Positions 1,161 to 53,747 of a stretch of 64,000 nucleotides of DNA are shown here, piece after piece. Source of the DNA: Elusimicrobia bacterium HGW-Elusimicrobia-3. GTDB taxonomy: Bacteria; Elusimicrobiota; Elusimicrobia; Elusimicrobiales; UBA9959. Numbering within the stretch: position 1 is the stretch's first letter; each line of letters starts with the position of its first letter. The notes beneath the pieces were generated by a model. The model ran no database searches. It was not told the DNA's origin and worked only from the letters and a program-made list of their open reading frames with translations. A program made the position numbers and the translations under genes. The DNA lies in contig PHAL01000003.1 of assembly GCA_002840355.1 (NCBI GenBank), positions 7,808 to 71,807 of the forward strand. Reading direction: 5' to 3'.

Positions 1161-1192
1161 AAAAGGGCCTGAAACTTTCAGGCCCTTTTTTG
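1161..1192 (+). terminator. Rho-independent terminator after the GAF/HD-GYP gene
   Basis: Stem gggcctga (1165-1172) pairs with tcaggccc (1178-1185), 5-nt loop, followed by tttttt (1186-1191). Confidence 0.7.
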
Positions 1193-1228
1193 CATCTAAC
1201 TTTCAGAACGTTTCAAAAGGAGTCTACC

Positions 1229-1618
1229 ATGAGCGACATGCAAATCACTTTCCCCGGCGGCAAAAAGGTGGCGGCCCAGTGGCACGGTTTCGAGATCATG
1301 ACCGACCAGCCCGCGCCCGTGGGCGAGGGATCGGCCCCCACGCCTTTCGACCTGTTCCTGGCCTCGCTGGGCACCTGCGCCGGCATCTTCGCGCTGGGCT
1401 TCATACAGAGCCGCGGCCTGAGCGCCGAGGGCCTGGGCATAGCCGTGAGCTTCGAGCGGGACGAAGCCACCCACCTGCTCTCCAGGACCGTAATGAAGAT
1501 CACCCCGCCCAAGGATTTCCCCGCCAAGTACCTGCCGGCCCTCGTCAAAGCCGCCGAGCAGTGCCTGGTCAAGCGCACGATGGACAATCCCCCCAAGTTC
1601 GAGATCACCGCCGGGTAG
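1229..1618 (+). CDS. OsmC/Ohr family protein
   Basis: ATG 1229 is preceded by AAAAGGAG (1216-1223). 129 aa with an OsmC-fold-like pattern ('PFDLFLASLGTCAGIF'). The ORF-track start at 1190 is judged an upstream extension. Confidence 0.75.
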   Translation: MSDMQITFPGGKKVAAQWHGFEIMTDQPAPVGEGSAPTPFDLFLASLGTCAGIFALGFIQSRGLSAEGLGIAVSFERDEATHLLSRTVMKITPPKDFPAKYLPALVKAAEQCLVKRTMDNPPKFEITAG

Positions 1619-1701: not shown

Positions 1702-1847
1702 ACCGCGAGAAGCACAGTCGGGCCTGCCGAGTGGCTGGGCCCGTCAGGCACGGGGTCTCGCACACCGTGCTCGCCCCTCCTCACTCGGCCTCGGCGCTAC
1801 GCAAGCCTCAGCCTCCGTGAGGGCCTTCCGAACCCATCCCCTCGTCA
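1702..1847 (+). repeat. Intergenic repeat element, copy L (left arm of an inverted pair)
   Basis: Shares blocks accgcgaga[a/t]gc.cagtcggg, cacaccgtg and tcggcgct(t)acgcaagcctc with 1922..2063 (reverse complement) and 32931..33080. Confidence 0.7.
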
Positions 1848-1921
1848 GTCCCTCCAGAGCGCTACACTATCCACTTTGCAAAGGCGCAAGGTTGTTCTCA
1901 GTGTTTTAGTTAGGAAGGGGC

Positions 1922-2063
1922 GACGAGGATATGCCTTCGCAGGGGCCTCGCGGAGGTGAGGCTTGCGTAAGCGCCGAACCGAAGCGAAAGAGCCGGGCCA
2001 CGGTGTGGCCCGGCGTACCCGGAGAAGGCGTATCCTTGGCGCCCCGACTGCGCTTCTCGCGGT
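1922..2063 (-). repeat. Intergenic repeat element, copy R (inverted relative to copy L)
   Basis: The reverse complement aligns block-for-block with copy L. Contains a 10-bp hairpin gccgggccac-ggt-gtggcccggc (1992-2014). Ends 4 nt from the stop codon of the WecA-like gene. Confidence 0.7.
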
Positions 2064-2067
2064 GACT

Positions 2068-3105
2068 CTATATCTTGATTTTGGCGATGACGATGCCGAC
2101 GAGGAGGAACTCGATGGCGAGGGCGAGGACTATGACCACGCCCCAGGCCAGCGGCACCTGCGTGATGAGCCAGGCGAACATGGCCAGGCCCAGCGTGCAC
2201 AGGGAGGCCAGGCCCACGATGCGCCGCCGGGAGAAGCCGATCTTCTCGAGCCGCAGCGCGAAGTGGTCCTTGCTGCCGATGAACGGCGAGTGGCCGCGGC
2301 GCAGCCGCAGGAAAGAGACGAAGAAGGTGTCGTAGATCGGGATGGCCAGGATGAACAGCGGGGCGTAGACGCCCAGCGGGTTCACGTCGGTGTAGCGCGT
2401 GCCCAGCGCCACCACCGCCAGCACGAAGCCGCACAACAGGCTGCCCGAGTCGCCCATGAAGATCTTGAAGCGCTTGGAGAGGTTATAAGGCAGGAAGCCC
2501 GCCGCCGCGCCGGCCAGCGCCGCCGAGGCGAAGTTGACGTAGATGGATTCCGACGGAAAAGCGATCAGCAGGAAGCCGAAGGCCGCCAGCGCCGCCTGTC
2601 CCGCCGACAGCCCGTCCATGATGTCGATGATGTTGAAAGCGTTGCTCACTCCCACTATCCAGATCACGCTCAGGATGAAGCCCAGGTAGTCGGGGTGTAT
2701 GAAGTGTATACGGATGCCGTAGTAGGCCACATAGATGGCCACCAGGAACTGCACCGCGAACTTCACCTTCACGCCCAGGCCGTGCGGCTTGCGCAGGTCG
2801 TCTATGAGGCCCAGCAGGAACATCACCGCGCCGCCGGCCAGTATTACGCGCAGGTCGCGCAGCGTGCCGGTGGGGAAAGAGGTATAGAAGCGCATGAACA
2901 AGAGCGAGGCGGAGAAAGCCAGGAAGATGGCCGTGCCTCCCAGCAGCGGCGTCGGTATCTTGTGCGTCTTGATGTCCGTGGGCTTGTCCAGGTGGCCGAA
3001 GCGCAGGGCCAGGGCGCGCAGCAGCGGGGTCAGCGCCAGCGACAGCAGCAGCGGCAGCGCGAAGGCTATCAGGTAGAGCCGGAAATTGTCCAGCAGGTCA
3101 TTCAT
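2068..3105 (-). CDS. Polyprenyl-phosphate HexNAc-1-phosphate transferase (MraY/WecA family, GT4 membrane enzyme)
   Basis: 345-aa polytopic membrane protein with family motifs 'NAFNIIDIMDGL' and 'FMGDSGSL'. Last gene of a 3-gene minus-strand operon. Confidence 0.85.
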   Translation of the reverse strand: MNDLLDNFRLYLIAFALPLLLSLALTPLLRALALRFGHLDKPTDIKTHKIPTPLLGGTAIFLAFSASLLFMRFYTSFPTGTLRDLRVILAGGAVMFLLGLIDDLRKPHGLGVKVKFAVQFLVAIYVAYYGIRIHFIHPDYLGFILSVIWIVGVSNAFNIIDIMDGLSAGQAALAAFGFLLIAFPSESIYVNFASAALAGAAAGFLPYNLSKRFKIFMGDSGSLLCGFVLAVVALGTRYTDVNPLGVYAPLFILAIPIYDTFFVSFLRLRRGHSPFIGSKDHFALRLEKIGFSRRRIVGLASLCTLGLAMFAWLITQVPLAWGVVIVLALAIEFLLVGIVIAKIKI

Positions 3106-4794: not shown

Positions 4795-5916
4795 ATGAAA
4801 GTACCCATGGTAGACATGCTGGCCGGCTACGCCCCCATAAAGGACGAGATCGAAGCCGCGGTAAAGACTGTATTCAACAAAGCCAATTTCATACTCGGCG
4901 AAGAAGTGACCAGGTTCGAGAAGGAATTCGCCGCCCATAACGGCACCAAGTACGCCGTCGGCGTGGCCAACGGCACCGACGCCATCCGCATGGCGCTCAT
5001 CGCCAGCGGCGTCAAGAAGGGCGACGAGGTCATCACCTCCCCCTTCACCTTCATCGCCACCTCCGAGACCATCTCCCAGGTGGGCGCCATCCCGGTGTTC
5101 GCCGACATCGACCCCGTCACCTTCAACCTCGACCCCAAGTCGGTCGAGCAGAAGATCACCGCGAAAACGAAGGCCATCGTCCCGGTGCACCTCTACGGCC
5201 TGCCCTGCGACATGGACGCCATCATGGCCCTCGCGGCCAAGCATAACCTGCTCGTCATCGAGGACACCGCGCAGGCCTTCACCGCCAAGTACAACCTGGG
5301 CGGCAAGGAGTGGAAGTACTGCGGCTCCATAGGCCATTGCGGCACCTACAGTTTCTTCCCGGCCAAGAACCTGGGCGCCTTCGGCGACGGCGGCGCTGTG
5401 ACCACCAACGACGACAAGATCTACGAGACCTTGAAGCAACTGCGCAACCACGGCAGCAAGGTGCGCTACCACCACGAAATGGAAGGCTTCAACAGCCGCC
5501 TCGACACGGTGCAGGCCGCCATCCTCTCCATCCGCCTGCGGCACGTGGAAAAATGGACCGAGATGCGCAACGCCGTGGCCGCCAAATACGCCGAGGCCCT
5601 GCAGGGCGTCTGCGTGACCCCGGTAGTGCCGGAGAACGCCCGCCACTCGTTCAACTATTACACCCTGCGCTTCGACAGCAAGGCCAAGCGCGACAACGCG
5701 CAGAAGTACCTGACCGAGCAGCAGATCGCCAACCAGATCTACTACCCGATAGCGCTGCACCTGCAGGAAGCGTACGCGCACCTCGGCGGCAAGCGGGGCG
5801 ACCTGCCCGTCTGCGACGCGGTGATGGACACCGTCTTCTCCCTGCCGATGTACCCGGAGCTTTCCGACGAGCAGATAAAGACCGTGACCGACGCCGTTAA
5901 AGCCTCGCTGAAGTAA
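4795..5916 (+). CDS. DegT/DnrJ/EryC1/StrS family PLP-dependent sugar aminotransferase
   Basis: 373 aa with 'GTDAIRMAL' and 'SFFPAKNLGAFGDGGAV' (PLP-lysine region) typical of the family. Confidence 0.9.
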   Translation: MKVPMVDMLAGYAPIKDEIEAAVKTVFNKANFILGEEVTRFEKEFAAHNGTKYAVGVANGTDAIRMALIASGVKKGDEVITSPFTFIATSETISQVGAIPVFADIDPVTFNLDPKSVEQKITAKTKAIVPVHLYGLPCDMDAIMALAAKHNLLVIEDTAQAFTAKYNLGGKEWKYCGSIGHCGTYSFFPAKNLGAFGDGGAVTTNDDKIYETLKQLRNHGSKVRYHHEMEGFNSRLDTVQAAILSIRLRHVEKWTEMRNAVAAKYAEALQGVCVTPVVPENARHSFNYYTLRFDSKAKRDNAQKYLTEQQIANQIYYPIALHLQEAYAHLGGKRGDLPVCDAVMDTVFSLPMYPELSDEQIKTVTDAVKASLK

Positions 5917-5995
5917 ACAGAACCGCACCCCCGCCCCGGAGCCGGGGCGGGGGTTGCGGCTACCCGCCCGCCAGGGCGGCGCTACAGGGGGACCC

Positions 5996-6940
5996 TTGCC
6001 TAAAACTCTTTCGGTCGTCATCCCGGTCTACAACGACTGGGACTCCGTAAACATTCTCGCCGGCCGCATAGCTCAGGCACTGAAGGCTGAAGACTTGCAA
6101 ACCCGGCTGCTCGTCGTGGACGACGGCTCCGACACGCCGGCCCCGGCCGGTTTGACGGAAACCAGCGGCACGGTCTCCGTCTCGGTGCTGAGGCTCAAGC
6201 GCAACCTGGGCCACCAGCGCGCCATCAGCGTGGCGCTGGCCTACCTCGACGACCAGGTGAAGCCCGACTACACGGCGGTCATCGACGGCGACGGCGAGGA
6301 CGACCCCGCCGACCTGCCGAAACTCCTGAAAGTCGCGGCCTGTTTCCCCGGCCCCGGCGCGGCCTTCGCCGAGCGCGGCAAGCGAGCCGAAGGTCTGTTG
6401 TTCCGCTTTTTCTACCTGGCCTACATATTACTGCACCGGTTGCTCACCGGGCACAAAATCCGCTTCGGCAACTACAGCGTTATCAACTCCGGGGCCCTGG
6501 CCGCGCTGGCCGTAGCCCAGGAAACCTGGAGCCACTACGCCGCCGCGGCCGTGAAACTGCGCGTGCCCATACGCACGGTCCCCAGCGCGCGCCTCGGGCG
6601 CATCAGTGGCAGCTCCAAGATGAACTTCTTCTCGCTGGTAGCGCACGGGCTGGGCGCGATGTCGGTTTTTGGGGACGTGATAGGGCCGAGGGTGCTTATC
6701 ACCATCTCTTTCCTGATGTCGCTGGTACTGGTATTGATAGCCGCGGTGCTGGCGATAAAATTCGGCACGAATCTCGCGATCCCCGGCTGGGCTACGTACA
6801 CGGTGGGGCTGCTAGCCACGTCCCTGCTGCAACTGGGCATGATGGCGGTGGTCTTCGCTTTCCTCACGCTGGCCAGCAGGCAGAATTCATCCTTTCTGCC
6901 GCTGCGCGACTATAAGCACTTCATCCGCAAACTTCCCTGA
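5996..6940 (+). CDS. Family 2 glycosyltransferase with C-terminal TM helices (ArnC/GtrB-like polyprenyl-phosphate glycosyltransferase)
   Basis: 'LSVVIPVYND', 'VVDDGS', 'DGDGEDDP', then two C-terminal hydrophobic helices. Start uncertain: TTG 5996 has AGGGGG 5 nt upstream, while the ORF track gives TTG 5954. Confidence 0.8.
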   Translation: MPKTLSVVIPVYNDWDSVNILAGRIAQALKAEDLQTRLLVVDDGSDTPAPAGLTETSGTVSVSVLRLKRNLGHQRAISVALAYLDDQVKPDYTAVIDGDGEDDPADLPKLLKVAACFPGPGAAFAERGKRAEGLLFRFFYLAYILLHRLLTGHKIRFGNYSVINSGALAALAVAQETWSHYAAAAVKLRVPIRTVPSARLGRISGSSKMNFFSLVAHGLGAMSVFGDVIGPRVLITISFLMSLVLVLIAAVLAIKFGTNLAIPGWATYTVGLLATSLLQLGMMAVVFAFLTLASRQNSSFLPLRDYKHFIRKLP

Positions 6941-25231: not shown

Positions 25232-26515
25232 CTATCTGGCGAAATCCCGGCCCTGGGCCCACTCCAGCCTGCTGCGGGCCACCAGCTGATTATAAACTGC
25301 CTCGAGGTGCTTCGCCTCCAGCGAGCAGAGCGCGCACAGTGCGCGCAGCGCGGGCATGGAGGGCCGCCCGCCGCGCGAGGCGGCGTCGTAGGCTTCCCGC
25401 GTCCTTTCGCTCTCGGCTCGCAGCTTCTCGGCCTCGATCTGCCAGAAGACGGCCTCCTTGTGCGCCAAAACGATCTCGAAGCGCACCCGGTCCTGCAGCT
25501 CGGAGCGCTTCAGTTCGCCCTGGCGGCGCTGCGCCTTGCGCTGCTGCACCTGGGTCCAGATGTCATAGGAGAGAGGAAAATGCACTGAAACCGAGGCCAG
25601 CCAGTTGCGCGAGCGCTCCTCTTCCTCGGCGAGCGATGAGAAGCGGTAGGCGCTCACGTCGTAGCTGGCGCCCAGGTAAATGGTGGGGTAGCGGCGCACC
25701 AGGGCCATTTTGACGGCTATATCCTCCATCTGGGCCTTGTAGAGCTCGCTCTTGAGCTCGGAGCGCGTCTCCATGGCCGTAACCAGGCTGGAGGCGGCCG
25801 CGCTCTCCACGGGCAGCGCCGAGAACTCCCCCACTATCTCGGTCCTGTAGCCCGGCTCCTTGTTGAGCACGCGCAGCAGTTCGGTAAGGGCGGCTTCCTC
25901 GCCGCGGCCTGCCAGGCGCGAGCGGTCCCCGATGCCGGACAGCAGCAGGTCGGCCTCCAGCGCCTCGAAGGCGTCCTTGCGGACGGCTGCGGCCAGGTCG
26001 CGGGCGCGGCCGGCCCAGTAGGAGAAGGAGGCGTTGAGGCTGCGCTGGTAGAGCAGGGCGTAGAAGGCTTTTTTCGCGGCGAGGGCGGCGTCGGCCCTGA
26101 CCGTCTCGAAATTGACCTTGGCCTGGTTATGGGCCGTCTTGGCCAGTTTCAGCGTGTTGGTGTTCCTGCCGCCGGTGTAGAGCGGCTGCAGGGCCTGCGC
26201 CCGCAGGGAGTAGAAAGAGTCGCTGGAGGAGGGATAGATGAATCTGTCGCCGAGGTCGCCGCCCAGCACGGCAGGGTACTCCAGGTTGGCCCGGTTGAGG
26301 CTGGCCGAGAGGGCGAACTGCGGCAGGGCCATGAAGCGCGCCTCGTGTACGCGCTGCCGCGCTATGATGATGTCCTGTTCGGCGGCCAGGGCGGCGGGGC
26401 TGTTCTTCACTGCCAGCGCGATGGCGTCGTGCAGCGTCAGCACATCTTTTCCGTTCTGCGCCAGCGCCGGAGCCGCCAGGGCGGCCAGCGCCAGCGCTGC
26501 CGCTAGCAGCTTCAT
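25232..26515 (-). CDS. TolC-family outer membrane efflux protein
   Basis: 427 aa with a signal peptide and two tandem OEP-like helical/beta repeats. Confidence 0.8.
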   Translation of the reverse strand: MKLLAAALALAALAAPALAQNGKDVLTLHDAIALAVKNSPAALAAEQDIIIARQRVHEARFMALPQFALSASLNRANLEYPAVLGGDLGDRFIYPSSSDSFYSLRAQALQPLYTGGRNTNTLKLAKTAHNQAKVNFETVRADAALAAKKAFYALLYQRSLNASFSYWAGRARDLAAAVRKDAFEALEADLLLSGIGDRSRLAGRGEEAALTELLRVLNKEPGYRTEIVGEFSALPVESAAASSLVTAMETRSELKSELYKAQMEDIAVKMALVRRYPTIYLGASYDVSAYRFSSLAEEEERSRNWLASVSVHFPLSYDIWTQVQQRKAQRRQGELKRSELQDRVRFEIVLAHKEAVFWQIEAEKLRAESERTREAYDAASRGGRPSMPALRALCALCSLEAKHLEAVYNQLVARSRLEWAQGRDFAR

Positions 26516-28977: not shown

Positions 28978-29352
28978 CTACAGGCCGAGGGCGGCCTTCA
29001 CCTTGGCGTCTATCTCCTCGAGCGAAAAAGGCTTCTGCACCACGTCGTTGGCGCCGCTGAGCAGGGCGATGCCCTTCTCGCTGGCCGTGTCGCGCGAGGT
29101 CATGATGATGATCTTGGGCCCGTCGGAGCCGTAGCGCGAGGAGATCTCGCTGGCCACGTGATAGCCGTCTATGTAGGGCATCATCACGTCCAGCAGCACC
29201 AGGTCGAACTTCTCGGACTCGGCGGCCTGCAGCGCTTCCTTGCCGTTCACCTTGGCGGTGACGTCGTAGCCGAACCGCTTGAAATAGGATTCAAGCAGGT
29301 CGATCAGGTCCGGATCGTCGTCCGCTATCAGGATCCGCTTTCCACTTTCCAT
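28978..29352 (-). CDS. Stand-alone response regulator receiver domain (CheY-like)
   Basis: ATG 29352 ('MESGKRILIADDDPD...'); conserved DD, 'LLDVMMP' and 'IIIMTS' positions. 124 aa. The start lies 25 nt inside the 3' end of dnaE. Confidence 0.85.
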   Translation of the reverse strand: MESGKRILIADDDPDLIDLLESYFKRFGYDVTAKVNGKEALQAAESEKFDLVLLDVMMPYIDGYHVASEISSRYGSDGPKIIIMTSRDTASEKGIALLSGANDVVQKPFSLEEIDAKVKAALGL

Positions 29353-32300
29353 GTCTTGTCCCCCAGGAGTTTCTCGATATCGTGTATCAGCGCGTCGCTC
29401 AGGCCCACGCGCTCGCTGGTCTCTATCATGTAGGTGCCCCGCCCCTTGGCGTTCACCTGGAAGTAGACCGGGCAGGCGCCGTGGCTGCGCCCGAGCGCCG
29501 CCTTCAGCTCGTGCAGCTGCTTCTCGTCGAAGAGTATGCCCTCGGGCAGGTTCAATATCATGCCGCGGGCCCACTTGTTCATCGCGTCGTAGAGGCCGTA
29601 GGCCTCCTCGGCTATCAGCTCGTAGTTCTGCTCGCCGAAATCTGATTTCTGCACCTTGCCGGTCACGACGACTATCTTATTGGGGCCCAGCTGCGGGCCG
29701 TAGATCTTGTATTTCTTGGGGAACAGGCAGACGCCGACGTTGCCGGTCAGGTCCTCCACCTCGAATTTGGCCATCGCCTCGCCGGTCTTCTTGGTCTGCA
29801 TGCTCTTGAACTGCGCCACGATGCCGGCCACGCGCACCATCGCGCCTTCCTCGAAGCCGCCGGCCAGCAGCTTCTCGGCCTGGGCGTTGGCCACCATCGA
29901 CAGGTGCCGGCGGTAGCTGTTGAGCGGGTGCCCGGAGAAATAGAAGCCCAGCACCTCGCGCTCGTTCTTGAGCAGGGCGTGCTCGCTCATCACCGGGGCG
30001 GCCTTGCGCTCCTCGCCGAAGAGCATGGCCTGGTTGCAGTCCTGGGACTTGCCGCCGCAGAACAGCTCCACGGCCTCCATCGCCTTCGTGCGGGAGATCT
30101 CCGGCTTTTCGGCCGGGTAGAAGCAGTCGAAGCAGCCGCCCTTGGCCAGCGAATCTATCACGCGCTTGTTGAGCTGCTTGGAATCCGCGCGCAGCGTGAA
30201 TTCCTCGAAAGAGCGGAACGGGCCGTTGCGCAGCCGCTCGGCCACCATCGTCTCCACCACGCCCTCGCCGACGTTCTTCACGGCGGTCAGCGCGAAACGG
30301 ATCGCGGGCTTTCCGTTGCGCTCCTCTATGGAGAATTTCTTCTGCGAGCCGTTCACGCTGGGGCCGAGGATCTCGATCTCCATGTCCTGGGCCTCACCTA
30401 TATATGTGACCAGCTTGTTCTCCTTCTCCTCGGAGTTGACCGCGCTCTTGCCGATCTCGCTGGTCAGCAGCGCGGCCATGAACTCAACCGGGTAATTGGC
30501 CTTGAGCCAGGCGGTATGGTAGGCCACCAGGGCGTAGGCCACCGAGTGGGACTTGTTGAAGCCGTAGCCCGCGAACTTCGCCATGTCGTCGAAGATCTTG
30601 CTGGAGAGCTTGTTGGACACGTCGTGGAACGACTTGGACTGCTCCACGAACTTGACGCGCAGCTTCTCCATGACGTCCAGCTTCTTCTTGCCCATGGCCT
30701 TGCGGAAGTCGTCGGCCTCGCTGGGCGTGAACTTGGCCATGCTCTTGGCGATCTCCATGACCTGTTCCTGGTACACCATGGTGCCGTAGGTGTCCTTCAG
30801 GATGGGCTCGAGCAGCGGGTGGTCGTAGGTGATCTTCTTGCGGCCGTGCTTGCGCTCCACGAAGGTCTCGAGCATGCCGCTCTCGATGGGGCCGGGGCGG
30901 TAGAGCGCCACGAGGGCGGAGATGTCGCTGAAGACGGTGGGCTTGAGGCCCTTCACCAGCTTCTTCATGCCCTCGCTTTCCAGCTGGAACACGCCGGTGG
31001 TCTTGCCGTCGCAGAGCAGGTCGAAGGTGGCCTTGTCGTCCATCGGAACGGAATAGATGTCGAAATCTTCTTTGCCTGGCAGCTTGCGGATGAACTCGCT
31101 GGCGGTCTCGATGATCGTCAGCGTGCGCAAGCCCAGGAAGTCCACCTTGAGCATGCCGAGCGTGCCCAGCACGTTGCCGTCGTACTGCGTGGTGATGACG
31201 TCCTTGTTGTTGCGGTTGGCCAGCGGCACATAGTCGGTGATGTCGTCCTTGGAGATAACCACGCCGGCGGCGTGCACGCCGGTCTGGCGGCGCAGGCCCT
31301 CCACCTTCAGGGCGATGTCGAACATCTTCTTGATCCTGGGGTCGCGCTGGTACTCCTTGAGCTCGTTGACCTCGTTCAAAGCCTTGAAGAGCGTGGTGCC
31401 CAGGTCCGCCGGCACCAGCTTGGCGATGGCGTTGACGTCGGCCAGCGGGATGCCCATCACGCGGCCCACGTCGCGCACGGCGCTCTTGGCCTTGATGGTG
31501 CCGTAGGTGATGATGTTGGCCACCCGGCTGGCGCCGTACTTCTCGCGCACGTACTGCACCACCTTCTCGCGGCCGTCGTCGGAAAAGTCGATGTCGAGGT
31601 CGGGCATGCTCTTGCGGCCGGGGTTGAGGAAGCGCTCGAACAGCAGGCTGTTGGGCAGCGGGTCCACGCGGGTGATGTCGAGCGTGTAGGCCACCAGCGC
31701 GCCGGCGCCGGAGCCGCGGCCGGGCCCCACGGGCACGCCGATGCTGCGGCCGTGCTTGATGAAATCCATGACGATCAGGAAGTAGCTGGAGAAGCCCATC
31801 TTCTTGATGGTGTCCAGCTCGAACTCCAGGCGCTTGTGGTACTCCGGGCCGGCGTTGGGCACCTTCTTCTTCAGGCCCTCCTCGCACAGGTCCCTGAGGT
31901 AGTAGAAGTCGCCGTCGCCCTCCGTGTGCTTCACCTTGTACGGGGCGGGGATGTCGAAGGCGGGCAGGTGCAGCTTGCTGGTGTCCACCTTGACGCTGCA
32001 CATGTCCGCGATGACCAGCGTGTTCTTCACGGCCTCGGGCGTGTGAGAAAAAAGCTGCACCATCTCCGCCGGGCTCTTGTAGTAGAGCTCGTGGGTGGTC
32101 ATGCGCATGCGGTTCGGGTCGTCCATCAGCGAGCCGGTGGAGATGCAGATATGCGCGTCGTGCGCCTCCCAGTCCTCTTTCTTCTGGTAGTGGCAGTCGT
32201 TGGTGGCCACCAGCGGGATGCCGGTGCGCTTGGCGACCTCTATGAGGCCGGCCATGGCCGCCTGCTCCTCGGGGATATTGTGGTCCATCAGCTCGAGGTA

Positions 32301-32840
32301 AAAATTGCCCTTGCCGAGGATGTCCTGGTATTCCATCGCCAGCTTCTGCGCCTCGTCCAGCTTGCCCTCGGCGCAGTTGCGGGCTATGTGGGACTTGAGG
32401 CAGCCGGAGAGGCAGATGAGGCCCTCGGCGTGCTTGGCGAGCAGTTCGGAATCTATGCGCGGATCGTGGTAGAAGCCCTCGAGGAAGGAGGCGGAGACCA
32501 GCTTCATCAGGTTGTGGTAGCCGGCGTCGTTCTTGGCGAGCACGGTCATGTGGCCGTTGTCGCGGCGGCTGCCGCCCTTATCCTTGTTGAGGCGCGACCC
32601 CTTGGCGACGTAGCACTCGCAGCCGATTATGGGCTTCAAGCCGGCGGCGTTGGCCATGAAATAGAAGTCCATGGCGCCGTACATGTTGCCGTGGTCGGTG
32701 ATGGCGAGGGCGTTGCCCTTTACGGCGCCGAGGCCCTTGAGGAATTCCGAGGGCCCGCCGTGGCCGTCGCTGACGCGCAGCATGCCGTCGAGCAGCGAGT
32801 ACTCGGAGTGGTTGTGCAAGTGTATGAATTCAGGGCCCAT
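29328..32840 (-). CDS. dnaE: DNA polymerase III alpha subunit
   Basis: 1170 aa with an N-terminal PHP domain 'IHLHNHSEYSLLDG', polymerase core and OB-fold region. Confidence 0.95.
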   Translation of the reverse strand: MGPEFIHLHNHSEYSLLDGMLRVSDGHGGPSEFLKGLGAVKGNALAITDHGNMYGAMDFYFMANAAGLKPIIGCECYVAKGSRLNKDKGGSRRDNGHMTVLAKNDAGYHNLMKLVSASFLEGFYHDPRIDSELLAKHAEGLICLSGCLKSHIARNCAEGKLDEAQKLAMEYQDILGKGNFYLELMDHNIPEEQAAMAGLIEVAKRTGIPLVATNDCHYQKKEDWEAHDAHICISTGSLMDDPNRMRMTTHELYYKSPAEMVQLFSHTPEAVKNTLVIADMCSVKVDTSKLHLPAFDIPAPYKVKHTEGDGDFYYLRDLCEEGLKKKVPNAGPEYHKRLEFELDTIKKMGFSSYFLIVMDFIKHGRSIGVPVGPGRGSGAGALVAYTLDITRVDPLPNSLLFERFLNPGRKSMPDLDIDFSDDGREKVVQYVREKYGASRVANIITYGTIKAKSAVRDVGRVMGIPLADVNAIAKLVPADLGTTLFKALNEVNELKEYQRDPRIKKMFDIALKVEGLRRQTGVHAAGVVISKDDITDYVPLANRNNKDVITTQYDGNVLGTLGMLKVDFLGLRTLTIIETASEFIRKLPGKEDFDIYSVPMDDKATFDLLCDGKTTGVFQLESEGMKKLVKGLKPTVFSDISALVALYRPGPIESGMLETFVERKHGRKKITYDHPLLEPILKDTYGTMVYQEQVMEIAKSMAKFTPSEADDFRKAMGKKKLDVMEKLRVKFVEQSKSFHDVSNKLSSKIFDDMAKFAGYGFNKSHSVAYALVAYHTAWLKANYPVEFMAALLTSEIGKSAVNSEEKENKLVTYIGEAQDMEIEILGPSVNGSQKKFSIEERNGKPAIRFALTAVKNVGEGVVETMVAERLRNGPFRSFEEFTLRADSKQLNKRVIDSLAKGGCFDCFYPAEKPEISRTKAMEAVELFCGGKSQDCNQAMLFGEERKAAPVMSEHALLKNEREVLGFYFSGHPLNSYRRHLSMVANAQAEKLLAGGFEEGAMVRVAGIVAQFKSMQTKKTGEAMAKFEVEDLTGNVGVCLFPKKYKIYGPQLGPNKIVVVTGKVQKSDFGEQNYELIAEEAYGLYDAMNKWARGMILNLPEGILFDEKQLHELKAALGRSHGACPVYFQVNAKGRGTYMIETSERVGLSDALIHDIEKLLGDKTWKVESGS

Positions 32841-32880: not shown

Positions 32881-32890
32881 AATTATATAA
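32881..32890 (-). promoter_or_regulatory. AT-rich box aattatataa (TATAAT on minus strand), candidate dnaE -10 element
   Basis: The reverse complement ttatataatt contains TATAAT about 40 nt upstream of the dnaE ATG (32840). An identical 10-mer recurs at 33124-33133. Confidence 0.3.
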
Positions 32891-32930: not shown

Positions 32931-33080
32931 ACCGCGAGATGCCCAGTCGGGGGCCTACCGCAGGGGTCAGATCGCAAAATCGGCGTCGCGCACACCGTGC
33001 GCGCGCCTGCCGCCCTCAGGCTCGGCGCTTACGCAAGCCTCGCCTTCCGGGGGGCTTTTGCTAACCTGACCCCCGCGGTC
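32931..33080 (+). repeat. Intergenic repeat element, copy 3
   Basis: Same three conserved blocks as 1702..1847. Hairpin cgcgcac-acc-gtgcgcg (32987-33003). The 5' accgcg can pair with the 3' cgcggt. Confidence 0.65.
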
Positions 33081-33123
33081 TCCCCCTCCGTAAAGAGCGG
33101 AGGTGGAGCGGGGCTTTAGCGGA

Positions 33124-33134
33124 AATTATATAAT
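33124..33134 (+). promoter_or_regulatory. AT-rich box aattatataat (TATAAT 33128-33133), candidate -10 for a leaderless NUDIX/tkt transcript
   Basis: Only 7 nt separate TATAAT from ATG 33141, and there is no Shine-Dalgarno sequence. Confidence 0.35.
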
Positions 33135-33140
33135 CATATT

Positions 33141-33701
33141 ATGGCGAAAAAAGCGGCGCATCCTTACACGGAGAAGAAGCACAAGCACAGGCTCGTCTTT
33201 TCCGGCACCGTGAATTTCCGCGCCGACACGGTCACGCTGCCCAACGGCCGGCGCGCCACGCGGGAGTTCGTGGACCATCCCGGCGCGGTGGCCGTGCTGC
33301 CGGTGCTGCCCGACGGGCGCATCGTCTTCGTGCGGCAGTTCCGCTACCCGGTGGGCCTGGCCACGCTGGAGATCCCGGCCGGCAAGCTCGACGGCCCCAA
33401 GGACAGCCCGCTGCGGCGCGTGAAAGCCGAACTGAAAGAAGAGACCGGCTATACCGCCAGGCAGATCACGCCCATACTTTCCTACTGGCCCACGCCCGCC
33501 TTCTCGACCGAAGTGTTGTATATCTATACCGCCACCGGGCTGAGCGGCGGCGCGCCCGACCCCGACGAGGACGAGTTCCTCACCCTGGAAATTATCCCTT
33601 TCGAAAAAGCCTGGCAGATGGTAGAGACCGGCCGAATCCGCGACTCGAAAACGGTCATCGCCCTGCAGGCCTGGAAAATAAAGCTGCTGGAGAAAAAATG
33701 A
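33141..33701 (+). CDS. NUDIX hydrolase (ADP-ribose pyrophosphatase-like)
   Basis: Nudix box region 'GKLDGPKDSPLRRVKAELKEETGY'. 186 aa. ATGA overlap with tkt. Confidence 0.85.
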   Translation: MAKKAAHPYTEKKHKHRLVFSGTVNFRADTVTLPNGRRATREFVDHPGAVAVLPVLPDGRIVFVRQFRYPVGLATLEIPAGKLDGPKDSPLRRVKAELKEETGYTARQITPILSYWPTPAFSTEVLYIYTATGLSGGAPDPDEDEFLTLEIIPFEKAWQMVETGRIRDSKTVIALQAWKIKLLEKK

Positions 33702-49472: not shown

Positions 49473-52400
49473 CTAGATAGCGCCGCCTGCCATGGTCGCC
49501 AGGCTGCCGGCGTTCACAGTGCCCGTGGAGACCACCACTTTCTGGCTGCAATCCGCGCAGTAGTAGATCTCCCCTTCCATTTCAGGCGTATACCCCAGGA
49601 GCGTGGCCCTATCCTTGCTCGGCAGGGCCAGCTTGCCCTGTACCCCCACCGCGCCCTCAAAGATATTTATAGAGTCGGCCCCCCGGGAAAGCAGGTTAAA
49701 GTTATCCCCGGAGCCCTGGGTGCTGTGGTCTTCTATCAGCAGCGCTGTGTTGTTCACAATGGCGCCGCCGGTAACGTCCGGGGGCAGTATCACCACGCCG
49801 TAATGCTCGTTTATAGTGCCGGCCGACTGGTAATTCTGCACGAAGACACCGGAGACGTTCTCCACTGTGCCGGCCCCCTCTACCATCGCCCCGGAACGCA
49901 CGCCGATCACGTTGGGGAAGTTGAAGGCGCCGGCATTGCTGCCGTGAAAATCTCCGCCGACCACCGTCTGGTCGGCGTTGAGGTGAGAATCAGGTTCAAC
50001 GGTCGCCATCACGGCTATGCCGGTGTTTTCCGCGCCTATCCCGGTGGCGGAGAAAGTGTTCTCTATCAGCAGCACCCGCTCCGAAGAGGGGCCAAGGGCG
50101 GCGTTGCCCATGTATATACCGGAGTTTATCCCCAGCGTGCCCACGTTGGAGATATTGTAGCCGCCCATGTCCAGGTCGGCGCCCCCCCCTCCCCCGGAAC
50201 CGCAGTCCGCGTCCTTGACGCCCAGCGTACCTTCCGCCGTAGCGTAAACGCAGCGGTTACCGATCCCGGCCAGCGCCGTGTTCAGCAGGCTGCCCTCGAT
50301 ATACAGCGTAGACGCCGGCACTATGGAGGAAACGTTGACGATGTTATACGTGTTCATGTCGAAGTGGGCTATGGCCGGGTTGGCCATGCCCACGCCGGCG
50401 GGCACGTTGAACAGACCGGAGCCGTCACCGTAGAACCTGGTGGCGTACACGCCGCCCGCGCCTGTCAGGCGAATCACTGGCGAGACTCCGGTGGAAACCA
50501 TCACCATATCCCCGGCGTAGCCGGCCGCCGAGGAGATGTGCAGGCTGGCGGCCGGAAATGTCTCGCCTATCACCAGCGGGCCGTTGGAGAACATGGCCCC
50601 GCCCGCGGCGAAGATGTCGCCTCCCACGAACAGCGAGGTGGAGAAGGCGATGCCGGGCTCCGAGGGTGAACCCACAATGGTGGAGACATTGATCATCCAG
50701 TTGCCGGCCAGGTCCAGGGCCTGCGTGGCCGTGTGATCGCCCAGGCCCCCGGTGCCGCTGACGCCGGTCAGCGCCGAGCCGTCGCCGTAATACTTGGCGG
50801 CCGAGGCTATGCCCACCACGTAAATATTACTGCTCACGTAGACGCCGCCGTTGAAGGCCGGCGCGGAAGAAGAAACCTCCACTTCAGGGGCCAGGGCCAG
50901 GCGCGGGGAGGTCAGGCCGTCCGCGGCCGCTACTGACAGGCTGCCGGCGAAAGCGTTGTCGGCGGCGTCCAGCAGGGGCACGTTGGCCGACAGCCGCGCG
51001 TCGGGCAGGGCGCCGGAGGTGAGCGCCGCGGCGCTGAGGTTGCGCAGGGCCGAGCCGTCGGCGTGCAGCAACCCGGAGGCCGTCATCGTGGCCTGGACCA
51101 GGCCGGCGTTGTTGCGCCAGAATTGTATGTAGCCGCCCTGCTCGCCCAGCACGTCCAGGCGCGCCGCCGGGGCGCCGGTGCCTACGCCGGCGTTGCCGGC
51201 GCTGTCCACGAAGAAACCCTCCGGATCCCCGTCGCCAGAGATCCAGTTGGAGCCGGTGATCAGGTCCTGCGTGAGCGTGTGGTCGCCCAGGTCGTCGTCG
51301 CCGCCTATGTTGCTGAGGGCGGAGCCGTCGCCGTAGTACTTGGCTCCGGCCGGCAGGTAGACATGCGTGGAAACGTAGACGCCGCCTTGGAAAGCGGCGG
51401 TCGCCGAGGAAAGGTCTACGCCGGGGGCCAGCGCCAGCCGCGGGGCGCCCACGCCCTGCGCGCCCGTCACCGTGACCGAGGAGGCGTTCAGGAGCTGGTT
51501 GCCGGCCAGGTTCAGCGCCTGTGAGGCGGTATGCCCGCCCAGGCCGTCGCCGGAAATATTGCGCAATCCGGCGCCGTCGGCGTAGATCACGCCGCCGGCG
51601 GAGACCGAAGCCATGATAACGCCGAACTGGTTGCGCCAGATCTGAGAGTAGGGCGCCGCGGGGACGGTCAGCACGTCCAGCCTGGCCTCGGGAATCTCGG
51701 TGCCGGCGCCTATATTGCCGTCGTTGCGCACCTTGAAGATAGTGAAACCCGTAAAATTCTCGGCGAGGAAGGCGTTCTCGGTATCGTCGTCAGTATTGGC
51801 CCGCACCAGCAGTTTACTGGTCCCGGCATTAGACTGGCCTATGGCCACGCTGGACGCGGCTTCCACGGTGTATACGCTGTTGCCGGCCACTCCCCACAGG
51901 GCGGAAGTGTCTACGAAATAAGACCCGTTGAGCGTGACCCAGTTCGAGCCGTTATACCCTTCGAAAGAGGCACCGTTGTAGCGGATAGAGCCCGGGACAT
52001 TGAGCGCGCTGTCGCCCACCCTGACCGCGCCGTTGACGTCGAGCCGCTGCAGCGGGAGGGCCGTGCCGATACCGACATTGCCGTCGGCCACCACCAGGCC
52101 GGAGGAAACCAGGACGCCTGGCAGGGTGGCGTGCTGTATGGAAAAAGTCGCGCTGGAAACGAAAGTGTTGGCCTGCGCCAGCCCGGCGTAGCCGGCCGCC
52201 GCGTGGTCGCCCCAGGCGACGGCCCCGTTCCAGGCGGCGCGCTCGCCTGCCAGGATGGCGTAAGCCGGGTGCGCGATAAAGACCGGGTCGGCCTCGGCTA
52301 TATTGGTCAGGCCGGAGCCGTCGGCGTACAGCACGCCCGCGGCGGTCATCGTGGCCACGGCCGCGCCGGCCGCGCTGCGCCAGATCTGGGAATTGCCGGC

Positions 52401-53747
52401 CACGGCGCCGCGCACGTCCAGGCGCGCCTCCGGCGCGTTGGTGCTCACGCCAACATTGCCGCCGGCGTCCACGAAAAGGCCTTCACTGCCGCCGTCGCCG
52501 GAATACCAGAACGCGCCGGCCGCGAGATTCTGCGCCAGCGTATGGTTGCCGAGGCCGTCGCCCAGGGCGCCCGCGGGCAGCCCGCGCAGGCCGGAGGCCG
52601 CCGCGTACAATACGCCGGTGGCGCTCATGGAAGCCTGCACCACCCCGCCGTCGTCGCGCCAGATCTGGGCGTAACCGCCGGCGTCCCCGCGCACGTCCAG
52701 CCGCGCGCCGGGGGCGGCCTGGCCCACGCCCACGTTGCCCGCGGCGTCCACGGCCAGGCCCTCGCCGTCGCCGTCGCCGGACACCCAGTTCGCGCCCAGC
52801 ACCAGGTTCTGCGTCAGCGTGTGGTCGCCCAGATCGTCGGAGCCGCTGACCCCGGTCAGACCGGAGCCGTCGCCGTAATACTTGGCGCCGGCGGCCAGGT
52901 AGACATGGCTGGAAACATAGAGCCCGCCGTAATGGGCGGCGGCAGAGGATGAAAGCGAGACCGCCGCGTTCAGGCCCACCGAGGGCGCGGAGACTATGCG
53001 CCGGCCGGCCATATTGAGGTCCTGCGTGGCTGTGTGCGAGCCCAGACCGTCGCCGGAGATATTGCGCAGGCCGGCCGCGTCGGCGTAGAGCGTGCCGCCC
53101 GCGGTCATGGAGGCCACGATGACCCCGCCGGAATTCCGCCAGAACTGAGAGTAGGAGTCCGCCGCGGCCGCCTGCACGTCCAGCCGGGTCTGCGGGCCCG
53201 CCAGGCCCAGGCCGGCGTAGCCGGTGCCGGTCAGCACGGCGTGCTGGCCCGAAGCGGCCCAGCCGGGCGCGGTGCGCTGCACGGTGTTGTCGGTATAAAC
53301 GACGCCCCTGCTGCCCGCCGCCCCGGAGAGCTTCAGGTCGCCGTTATTGACGGTGAAGGTGCCGGTGGAGGCTTCGGCCGTGACCGAGTGCAGGGAGTAG
53401 ACCGAGGAATAGAGAGGCTCCGGCTGCAGCCAGCCGCCGTCGAGGCTCATCATGACGTAAGGGGTTATATCTTTCCAGGGTATGGCCGCGAAAGTCTCCT
53501 CGTCAGGAGTGCCGAGCGGGTAGCGGAACAGGCCTGTGGAAACCACAACATCCGTGGAACCGGAATTCCAGTACTCCGCGGCGCCGGAGGCGTCCGTTAT
53601 CTTGAACTCCATCGCTACCGTGCCGTTGAACAGCCGGCCGTCCTTGCGCAGCGTGCCCTGGTAGCTTATCAGGCCCGGCGAGGCGGCGTAAGCCCCCCCG
53701 GCCAACAGCCCGGCCAGCGCGGCCGCTAAAATGGATATTTTTTTCAC
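49473..53747 (-). CDS. 1,424-aa secreted repeat fibre / adhesin-like protein (tail-fibre-type 'GNVGIG..AP.ARLDV' and 'YYGDGS.LT' repeats)
   Basis: GTG start with GAGGTGA 4 nt upstream. Signal peptide 'ILAAALAGLLAGGAYA'. Many Gly/Ala-rich repeats and a beta-helix-like C-terminal third. Confidence 0.8.
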   Translation of the reverse strand: MKKISILAAALAGLLAGGAYAASPGLISYQGTLRKDGRLFNGTVAMEFKITDASGAAEYWNSGSTDVVVSTGLFRYPLGTPDEETFAAIPWKDITPYVMMSLDGGWLQPEPLYSSVYSLHSVTAEASTGTFTVNNGDLKLSGAAGSRGVVYTDNTVQRTAPGWAASGQHAVLTGTGYAGLGLAGPQTRLDVQAAAADSYSQFWRNSGGVIVASMTAGGTLYADAAGLRNISGDGLGSHTATQDLNMAGRRIVSAPSVGLNAAVSLSSSAAAHYGGLYVSSHVYLAAGAKYYGDGSGLTGVSGSDDLGDHTLTQNLVLGANWVSGDGDGEGLAVDAAGNVGVGQAAPGARLDVRGDAGGYAQIWRDDGGVVQASMSATGVLYAAASGLRGLPAGALGDGLGNHTLAQNLAAGAFWYSGDGGSEGLFVDAGGNVGVSTNAPEARLDVRGAVAGNSQIWRSAAGAAVATMTAAGVLYADGSGLTNIAEADPVFIAHPAYAILAGERAAWNGAVAWGDHAAAGYAGLAQANTFVSSATFSIQHATLPGVLVSSGLVVADGNVGIGTALPLQRLDVNGAVRVGDSALNVPGSIRYNGASFEGYNGSNWVTLNGSYFVDTSALWGVAGNSVYTVEAASSVAIGQSNAGTSKLLVRANTDDDTENAFLAENFTGFTIFKVRNDGNIGAGTEIPEARLDVLTVPAAPYSQIWRNQFGVIMASVSAGGVIYADGAGLRNISGDGLGGHTASQALNLAGNQLLNASSVTVTGAQGVGAPRLALAPGVDLSSATAAFQGGVYVSTHVYLPAGAKYYGDGSALSNIGGDDDLGDHTLTQDLITGSNWISGDGDPEGFFVDSAGNAGVGTGAPAARLDVLGEQGGYIQFWRNNAGLVQATMTASGLLHADGSALRNLSAAALTSGALPDARLSANVPLLDAADNAFAGSLSVAAADGLTSPRLALAPEVEVSSSAPAFNGGVYVSSNIYVVGIASAAKYYGDGSALTGVSGTGGLGDHTATQALDLAGNWMINVSTIVGSPSEPGIAFSTSLFVGGDIFAAGGAMFSNGPLVIGETFPAASLHISSAAGYAGDMVMVSTGVSPVIRLTGAGGVYATRFYGDGSGLFNVPAGVGMANPAIAHFDMNTYNIVNVSSIVPASTLYIEGSLLNTALAGIGNRCVYATAEGTLGVKDADCGSGGGGGADLDMGGYNISNVGTLGINSGIYMGNAALGPSSERVLLIENTFSATGIGAENTGIAVMATVEPDSHLNADQTVVGGDFHGSNAGAFNFPNVIGVRSGAMVEGAGTVENVSGVFVQNYQSAGTINEHYGVVILPPDVTGGAIVNNTALLIEDHSTQGSGDNFNLLSRGADSINIFEGAVGVQGKLALPSKDRATLLGYTPEMEGEIYYCADCSQKVVVSTGTVNAGSLATMAGGAI
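51033..51716 (-). repeat. Internal protein-level duplication unit B of the fibre gene (aa ~678-905)
   Basis: See unit A. The DNA copies are diverged (by eye roughly three quarters identical), so this is not a recent duplication or an assembly artefact. Confidence 0.75.
52563..53219 (-). repeat. Internal protein-level duplication unit A of the fibre gene (aa ~177-395)
   Basis: Collinear with aa ~678-905: 'RLDV...YSQ(F/I)WRN..GVI.AS..AGG.(L/I)YAD.AGLRNISGDGLG.HTA.Q.LN.AG...AKYYGDGS.L....G.DDLGDHTLTQ.L..G.NW.SGDGD.EG..VD.AGN.GVG..AP.ARLDV'. Confidence 0.75.

Follow-up and report, generated by a model that had tools for sequence, protein, structure and literature searches.

The 64-kb window, that is, the whole stretch of DNA analysed here, carries three copies of a structured intergenic repeat at two loci; the top Pfam families that it encodes belong to core metabolism and cell-envelope genes only. 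At the first locus, an OsmC-like gene (1190..1618, + strand; Pfam OsmC, 8.6e-13) converges with a gene for a family 4 glycosyltransferase of the WecA/MraY type (GT4; 2068..3105, - strand; Pfam Glycos_transf_4, 9.9e-31), and two of the copies, c1 (1702-1855, +) and c2 (1913-2063, -), lie tail to tail between them. The third copy, c3 (32931-33089, +), stands alone between dnaE, encoding DNA polymerase III alpha (29328..32840, -; Pfam DNA_pol3_alpha, 1.7e-98), and a NUDIX hydrolase gene (33141..33701, +; Pfam NUDIX, 2.4e-11). The Pfam matches agree with all four gene names in the initial annotation, which had described three copies of about 145 nt sharing ordered blocks; sequence reading and alignment bear this description out, as do the box and block counts and the covariance model search given below. 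The limits then proposed (1702-1847, 1922-2063 and 32931-33080) were right where each copy starts, at its box, but fell about 8-9 nt short at the 3' ends. Similarly, the proposal that the inverted pair exactly fills the gap between osmC and the WecA-like gene holds on one side, where 4 nt lie between c2 and the GT4 stop codon, but not on the other, where the 83 nt from the OsmC stop codon (1618) to the start of c1 form a structured insert of their own.

Each unit consists of a near-invariant 21-nt box, a Y-shaped three-way hairpin of about 130 nt and a CCCCTCC tail. In the predicted fold, bases 1-17 of the box are unpaired, so that the hairpin has a 5' single-stranded box; the box ends in a G-run, from which a long outer stem, variable in sequence, extends until it closes on a C-run followed by TCC. 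Two inner arms are enclosed, P2 with the apex CACACCGUG and P3 with the apex GCGCUUAYGCAAGC. Copy c1 belongs to an A1-like subfamily and comprises a box (ACCGCGAGAAGCACAGTCGGG, 1702..1722) that matches the pattern exactly and whose final GGG begins the outer stem, a P2 apex (CACACCGTG, 1761..1769), a P3 apex one T shorter than the consensus (GGCGCTACGCAAGCC, 1793..1807) and a CCCTCC tail. In c2, read on the - strand, the box (ACCGCGAGAAGCGCAGTCGGG, 2043..2063) is followed by the same P2 apex (1999..2007), a P3 apex (GGCGCTTACGCAAGCC, 1960..1975) and the tail CCCCTTCC. The solo copy c3, of subfamily A3, has a pattern-matching box (ACCGCGAGATGCCCAGTCGGG, 32931..32951), with its P2 and P3 apices at 32991..32999 and 33024..33039. 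The spacer between c1 and c2 (1856..1912) is fast-evolving, and a consensus scan of it found neither a sigma-70-like promoter nor a canonical terminator.

The box ACCGCGAGAWGCNCAGTCGGG has three exact matches in the window, at 1702 (+), 2043-2063 (-) and 32931 (+), where 0.02 would be expected by chance, and the block TCGGCGCTTACGCAAGCCTC has two, against 0.01 expected, with copy 1 one T short. A search of the 64 kb with a covariance model (CM) built from 21 family members returned only c3, c1 and c2, at 162.5, 128.8 and 113.7 bits respectively. A fourth, weak match at 25263-25403 (E = 0.18) lies inside an ORF and was rejected as coding sequence. Copy c3 apparently lies between the TATAAT boxes of the divergent dnaE and NUDIX genes, upstream of both. 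This placement is read from the sequence; at the same site the consensus scan made no promoter call. We considered AATTATATAA, present on either side of c3, as a possible duplication and rejected it: the two occurrences are these same TATAAT boxes, which we read as the -10 elements of dnaE and NUDIX although the scan left them uncalled.

Distribution and folding of the family

Further copies exist beyond the window. A box scan of one genome per species identified 55 loci, about 51 of them in Elusimicrobia/Elusimicrobiales/Elusimicrobiaceae MAGs, with 3-7 exact boxes per Elusimicrobia MAG, and a box scan of metagenomes added 113 loci. Matches in Bosea, an actinomycete, a Thermotogae MAG and two viral contigs were set aside as chance occurrences, being located in coding sequence and having no hairpin. 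The family was found only in one group of uncultivated Elusimicrobia, in which it is dispersed over well more than 100 unrelated intergenic sites. Comparison of 159 distinct upstream flanks placed the boundary of the repeat precisely, since similarity starts sharply at box base 1, an A; ahead of the box there is only a preference, for R-R at -1/-2 and for A-rich sequence from -3 to -8.

All copies are intergenic, and 13 of the 32 classified sites lie between convergent genes. The box is a median of 17 nt past stop codons. On the box side, the neighbouring gene is met at its 3' end in 41 cases and at its 5' start in another 41 (28 of these reliable), and no rule relating the orientation of the repeat to that of the neighbouring gene was found. 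Few extra hairpins occur in the 8-kb flanks of the loci.

The initial annotation had claimed that the hairpin covaries between copies. Among 80 model-aligned type-A copies, 95.1% of cells are standard pairs, compared with 77.4% after partner shuffling, and two-sided changes occur in 30 of 36 pairs, compared with 18.6 in the shuffles, counts in which the cells are not independent events, as the copies are related by descent within subfamilies, and for which the alignment was fitted to the model. The covariation score of 0.449 (0.152 when shuffled) was reached by none of 500 shuffles, and sliding the partners by 1-3 columns gave scores of at most 0.153. An independent MAFFT alignment of 21 copies revealed compensatory change in 23 of 36 pairs. 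Pairing is therefore kept well beyond both the shuffled and the slid controls; it is not confined to the small apex stem first described, and extends over the whole three-way hairpin of about 130 nt.

The two strands do not fold equally well. Of 82 distinct copies, 78 have their better fold on the strand complementary to the box under RNA parameters, with a mean difference between strands of 8.1 kcal/mol, and 73 under DNA parameters, with a mean difference of 4.1 kcal/mol. Recurrent tandem C.U/U.C mismatches on the box strand correspond to tandem G.A pairs on the complementary strand, which carries a conserved segment, GACUGGGCAUCUCGCGGU, 3' of the hairpin; the order on the better-folding strand is the hairpin and then GACTGGGCATCTCGCGGT. 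These comparisons suggest that the strand complementary to the box is the one that matters, a call that we hold as suggestive because the CM-fitted alignment has G.U pairs on the box strand too.

Scanned at the gathering threshold, the whole window matched no Rfam family, in line with the initial annotation, which did not recognise the repeat as RNase P, SRP, 6S, tmRNA or a known riboswitch. At E <= 10, positions 1600-2150 gave only generic long-hairpin matches far below threshold (MIR839, 29 bits vs 200), and ARAGORN detected no tRNA or tmRNA. blastn against 5,426 E. coli genomes showed no similarity, including to the ERIC consensus and REP; the plasmid and phage searches showed none either, and literature searches pairing Elusimicrobia with REP or MITE yielded nothing relevant. 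To judge by the databases and literature available, the family is undescribed, as had been proposed.

Modular build and turnover of the copies

Hairpins of at least four unrelated subfamilies (A1, A2, A3, B and a longer C) occur within one and the same box and tail; they are alike in their Y shape and unrelated in the sequences of their arms and loops. In A2 and A3, opposite arms bear an A-tract and a U-tract, and a CCTAC/GTAGG motif, missing from A1 and B, occurs in these two subfamilies only. At least 24 of the 35 complete units, about two thirds, are arranged tail to tail with an inverted partner hairpin; the partners have no box and show the ends GGCGGCCTACCG.../...CGGTCTCCGCC. A box on both sides is seen in the c1/c2 pair of the window and at loci L036, L095, L099 and L119. 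Between the hairpins, a small number of recurring spacer families (S1-S4) are combined with different hairpins, and nested and recombinant forms occur at L014, L028, L054 and L138. A mosaic build of this sort is what BIMEs show in E. coli.

Copies of the same subfamily at unrelated loci are 90-99% identical, both within and between species-level MAGs, while the flanks of these near-identical copies are about 45-50% identical, which is the random level. Conversely, orthologous loci may hold different subfamilies: A2 at L018 and L056 vs B at L021 and L042, and A1 at L001 vs A2 at L025. At several sites the same position and orientation are occupied in different species, even with a differing hairpin subfamily. 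Such shared sites might just as well reflect selection to retain a host function; the 90-99% identity between unrelated loci, however, needs dispersal or conversion, beyond local selection.

Two comparisons with the window show how individual copies have changed. L095 is the ortholog of the osmC/GT4 site, with coding flanks 94-97%, hairpins 89-93% and spacer about 66% identical. Its ortholog of c1 is about 93% identical, and an A2-type patch has taken the place of P2 in c2, which indicates conversion between family members. Around copy 3, the window shares about 97% identity with a close relative, L007 from Elusimicrobia bacterium GWB2_63_16, and this places the window in the clade that carries the family; in L007 the interior of the c3 hairpin is deleted, and the box and flanks remain. 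Direct repeats of 4 nt or more at the junctions, as would mark a target-site duplication, were no commoner than in shuffled pairings. Since there is no target duplication and most units have no terminal inverted repeats, classical MITE transposition is excluded.

Low-GC accessory genes often lie between inverted units. Cargoes of this type include a GNAT gene at L112, a HigB-like/XRE pair with a YARHG protein at L069 and a small membrane protein at L058, with further examples at L154, L066 and L084; small membrane or secreted proteins are among them. L046 and L049 represent the same locus as L058 and lack its cargo, and L038 likewise lacks the cargo of L069. The cargoes are mutually unrelated and some hold ordinary IS elements (IS110, IS256-like). 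As for transposases, an IS110 lodged in the tip of a hairpin and an IS256-like gene were all that was found between units, and both have ends of their own.

Nature of the repeat

We consider it probable that the copies are lineage-specific, modular, structured interspersed DNA repeats of the REP/BIME/REPIN and ERIC kind, selected for hairpin formation as a single strand. The absence of an orientation rule and of promoter enrichment, together with the 90-99% identity at unrelated loci, argues for a dispersed modular repeat. A stand-alone RNA gene, riboswitch or ribozyme is not favoured because one box and tail enclose unrelated hairpins with differing loops. Of the 'structured RNA or protein-recognised hairpin' initially suggested, a dedicated RNA gene or riboswitch has accordingly lost ground, while a protein-recognised hairpin is still compatible with the data. 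On the other side, no mobilising enzyme was found in 1.18 Mb of sequence flanking the loci, the copy number is low for a REP-like family, and the same sites are occupied in the same orientation in different species.

If the copies are such repeats, the element would be selected as a single strand, either as DNA in replication or repair or as RNA on read-through, presenting a hairpin and then a 3' box. A trans-acting factor would recognise the hairpin and box, a geometry that matches, by analogy, the substrates of HUH-type single-strand nucleases. Such a factor, gene conversion between copies, or both, could spread and homogenise the units with no target duplication. Co-transcription would probably make the hairpins into roadblocks or barriers to exonucleases, which would explain why insertion is tolerated just after stop codons and between convergent genes.

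Among known systems, REP/BIME/REPIN elements are alike in being extragenic structured repeats that form inverted pairs with a few recurring spacer motifs in a mosaic, that are frequent between convergent genes and just past stops, that keep their pairing by compensatory change, and that lack target duplication and serve as targets for IS110-family insertion. They differ in that REP is a 20-40-nt palindrome led by GTAG, whereas the Elusimicrobia unit is a three-way hairpin of about 130 nt with an asymmetric 21-nt box common to unrelated hairpins, and in that REP copies number hundreds per genome as against 3-7 exact boxes per MAG. There is no sequence similarity to E. coli genomes. REPINs have RAYT transposases; in the 1.18 Mb searched around 170 loci of the family, tblastn with hand-entered IS200 TnpA and RAYT (YafM) query sequences gave no match.

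ERIC/IRU elements (about 127 bp) are similar in size, with an imperfect long hairpin, a low to moderate copy number and no known transposase. They also occupy orthologous intergenic sites across species, in both orientations, with pairing-preserving substitutions. In keeping its pairing and its sites the family behaves analogously to ERIC, a resemblance of behaviour and not a sign of membership: the phylum is different, there is no sequence similarity, the hairpin is Y-shaped and not simple, and interchangeable hairpin subfamilies behind one box and habitual tail-to-tail pairing set the family apart. With MITEs (Correia/NEMIS, RUP) and BOX the family shares the character of non-coding, dispersed intergenic elements of about 100-350 bp, and with BOX A/B/C a modular build; some of its copies (window c1-c2, L036, L095) have 21-bp terminal inverted boxes. 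It differs from MITEs in having no target-site duplication and a box at one end only in most composites, and no IS with matching ends was found that could be its parent. Terminal inverted repeats of the MITE type, shared with an IS, were rejected as an identity for the same boxes, as only a minority of composites have a box at both ends. By inspection, the units were likewise rejected as integron attC sites, having no R''/R' core sites (RYYYAAC ... GTTRRRY), being inverted and not direct, and forming no arrays.

The main rival, which is not mutually exclusive with the repeat reading, is a host-selected cis-acting RNA: transcribed within the 3' end of an mRNA or between cistrons, the hairpin would stabilise or terminate the message, the box would be a processing or protein-binding site, and the flanking genes would need their copies. 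The placement of copies at gene ends, a median of 17 nt past stops and between convergent genes at 13 of 32 sites, is what this predicts, but the box-side neighbour shows a 5' start as often as a 3' end (41, of which 28 reliable, vs 41), most convergent gene junctions in the window have no element, and c3 apparently lies upstream of both TATAAT boxes read at its locus, which the scan left uncalled. Occupation of the same sites and orientation in several species despite a change of subfamily, and hairpins that evolve more slowly than the adjoining spacer, also speak for a function at the locus; against this, L007 has lost the interior of the c3 hairpin, and the identity between unrelated loci is 90-99%. 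Compensatory changes and a strand that folds better would be expected of an RNA, and the A-tract and U-tract on opposite arms in A2/A3 resemble bidirectional terminators. An intrinsic terminator was nevertheless rejected: neither strand has a U-tract after the outer stem, and the scan gave internal partial matches only, although these organisms use canonical hairpin-plus-U-tract terminators elsewhere (L112, L046, L028). On this balance we judge a cis-acting RNA role to be possible but rather unlikely as the principal explanation.

The cargoes bring in another alternative, in which the repeats are the structured ends of a cargo-carrying mobile element, or of a hairpin-bounded cassette hotspot, nicked by an HUH-type enzyme and holding accessory genes between inverted units. 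A three-way hairpin of about 130 nt beside a single-stranded box of about 20 nt, in inverted pairs, has the look of such ends. The ITR of the parvovirus AAV is a T- or Y-shaped hairpin of about 125-130 nt, with a long stem and two small arms, beside a conserved single-stranded segment of about 20 nt. As in AAV ITRs and other HUH substrates (IS200/IS605 ends, oriT nic sites), the conserved segment is 3' of the hairpin on the better-folding strand; the likeness is one of architecture only. Low-GC accessory genes between inverted units, the absence of the L058 and L069 cargoes from the same loci elsewhere and the lack of target duplications would also fit. However, the Elusimicrobia repeat is chromosomal and multi-copy, its box points away from the DNA that a pair encloses, unlike the parvoviral D-sequence, which is turned the other way, and most pairs have a box on one side only. 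No HUH protein was identified in the 1.18 Mb of flanking sequence, and no Rep, Y1 or other candidate enzyme was found in or near any cargo. As the cargoes are unrelated to each other, and some include ordinary IS, the simpler account is foreign DNA tolerated between hairpins, and we regard mobile-element ends as improbable.

A more far-reaching version of this proposal, to which we give an equally slim chance, is that the box and Y-shaped hairpin might be the recognition module of a new single-strand DNA mobilisation or recombination system, with the inverted pairs as docks for accessory genes. Both the ITR-like ends and the docks are suggested by architecture and cargo accumulation only. Were the docks real, toxin-antitoxin pairs, acetyltransferases and surface proteins would be captured and exchanged in a cassette system that works without an integron integrase.

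The copies could instead encode a family of small trans-acting RNAs, each with its own promoter in the spacer and with the box as a seed or protein-binding tail. The strong structure with a conserved single-stranded segment would suit such RNAs, and S1 spacers have a weak TTGCGA-N16-TAAATT match that ends 4 nt before the hairpin, pointing into the better-folding strand. Promoter-like sites aimed into the hairpin, however, were present at 12 of 86 copies, compared with 11.1 +/- 3.1 in shuffles, and so were not enriched; sites aimed away from it were equally numerous, the spacing was not fixed, and at neither window locus did the consensus scan call a promoter-like site. No terminator follows the box, and loops are not conserved between subfamilies; we therefore think this reading very unlikely. 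On inspection, a sigma-54 promoter on the reverse-complemented box failed on the GG/GC spacing, and a small ORF after the reverse-strand GGAGG had no start codon or frame common to the subfamilies.

Finally, although an intergenic segment is bounded by perfect inverted boxes of 21 bp in the window (1702-1722 and 2043-2063) and at L036, L095, L099 and L119, an inverton, in which these boxes would be the inverted repeats of a 320-bp segment flipped by a recombinase, is scarcely credible, given that most family members have one box only, the sole orthologous pair (window and L095) is in the same orientation, no recombinase is among the top Pfam families of the window, and a promoter switch between two gene 3' ends has nothing to drive.

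Read as interspersed repeats, the copies would make up the Elusimicrobia equivalent of REP/BIME/ERIC, a new family of a familiar kind. To our knowledge, repeats of this structured, interspersed type have been studied well in a few phyla with cultivated members, while hardly any are known from the genomes of candidate phyla, and the factor that recognises ERIC-type elements is still an open question; a single box serving several unrelated hairpins offers an unusually clean handle for finding the recognising factor. Both the box pattern and the covariance model are ready for use in masking or annotating these genomes, in which the repeats break MAG assemblies, mark hotspots for accessory genes and IS110, and could be mis-annotated as RNA genes. 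Contigs were seen to break right after the box, with poly-G runs. At L080, an IS110-family element (Pfam DEDD_Tnp_IS110 and Transposase_20) is inserted exactly in the tip of P3, with CTT at both junctions; relatives of IS110 target REP sequences likewise.

Accessory genes and AT-rich modules at the hairpin units

Low-GC accessory genes lie between inverted hairpin units at six of the loci from the box scans (L112, 2475-2990; L069, 954-2799; L058, 6946-7314; L154, 871-1424; L066, 303-839; and L084, 1796-2953). Their products comprise a GNAT acetyltransferase, a Gp49/HigB-like toxin with an XRE partner, a YARHG protein, and small membrane or secreted proteins. For two of these sites, related genomes are free of cargo (L046 and L049 compared with L058, and L038 compared with L069).

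An AT-rich module of ~110 nucleotides (ACGCACTTGATG...GGCACTTCCTTAAACTAAACAACAT...TCCCRCCC), within which CCCRCCC/GGGYGGG motifs are repeated, recurs immediately after hairpin tails. It was found in L108 (1553-1795), at three positions in L073 (5457-5563, 6244-6345 and 9938-10050), and in L074, L075, L084, L134, L145, L148, L140 and L013. Two inverted modules fill the space between two hairpin units in L108 and L078; elsewhere, the module adjoins accessory-gene islands. The region between two inverted modules in L073 (6403-9670) looks like another small accessory island adjoining hairpin units. Judged by eye, it carries a 198-amino-acid ORF for a putative PD-(D/E)XK/NucS-like protein and a frameshifted ORF pair for a putative IS256 (mutator-type) transposase.

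Insertions in and beside the hairpin

The P3 apex of a hairpin unit in L080 is the exact site of an IS110-family insertion sequence (786-1962; GCTCTT / IS / CTTACGTAAGC) that encodes a DEDD-type transposase of 320 amino acids, and CTT is present at each of the two element–hairpin junctions. The same element occurs in L144 (about 5065-6350). The sequence CGTACGTAAGCGAGG, in the element's upstream non-coding region, matches that of the target P3 apex; this match would fit a bridge-RNA-type guide directed at the hairpin repeat.

In the window, the OsmC stop codon is separated from copy 1 by a GC-rich, hairpin-forming insert of 83 nucleotides (1619-1701) with a very stable fold (-52.7 kcal/mol). 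The insert is absent from the orthologous site in L095; copies of it, about 91% identical over 54 nucleotides, are present in L008 (1758-1810) and L085 (179-231). It probably represents a second, smaller repeat family.

In L002 and L040, contigs end in long poly-G runs directly after the box; short-read assemblies of these MAGs therefore appear to be broken or corrupted by the repeats or by their G-runs.

TATAAT motifs at copy 3 and an ORF with internal repeats

TATAAT-type motifs flank copy 3 at 33129-33143 on the NUDIX side and 32881-32890 on the dnaE side. Because the TATAAT box ends 6 nucleotides upstream of the NUDIX ATG (33141), the NUDIX mRNA may be leaderless. The AATTATATAA motif also occurs upstream of dnaE, on the opposite strand, and is kept in L007, a close relative at copy 3, and in L125.

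Elsewhere in the window, a 1424-amino-acid ORF (49473-53747, minus strand) contains several long direct repeats (114-300 nucleotides, 64-80% identity) within 50412-53191; these indicate that its predicted product is a large protein built of repeated domains.
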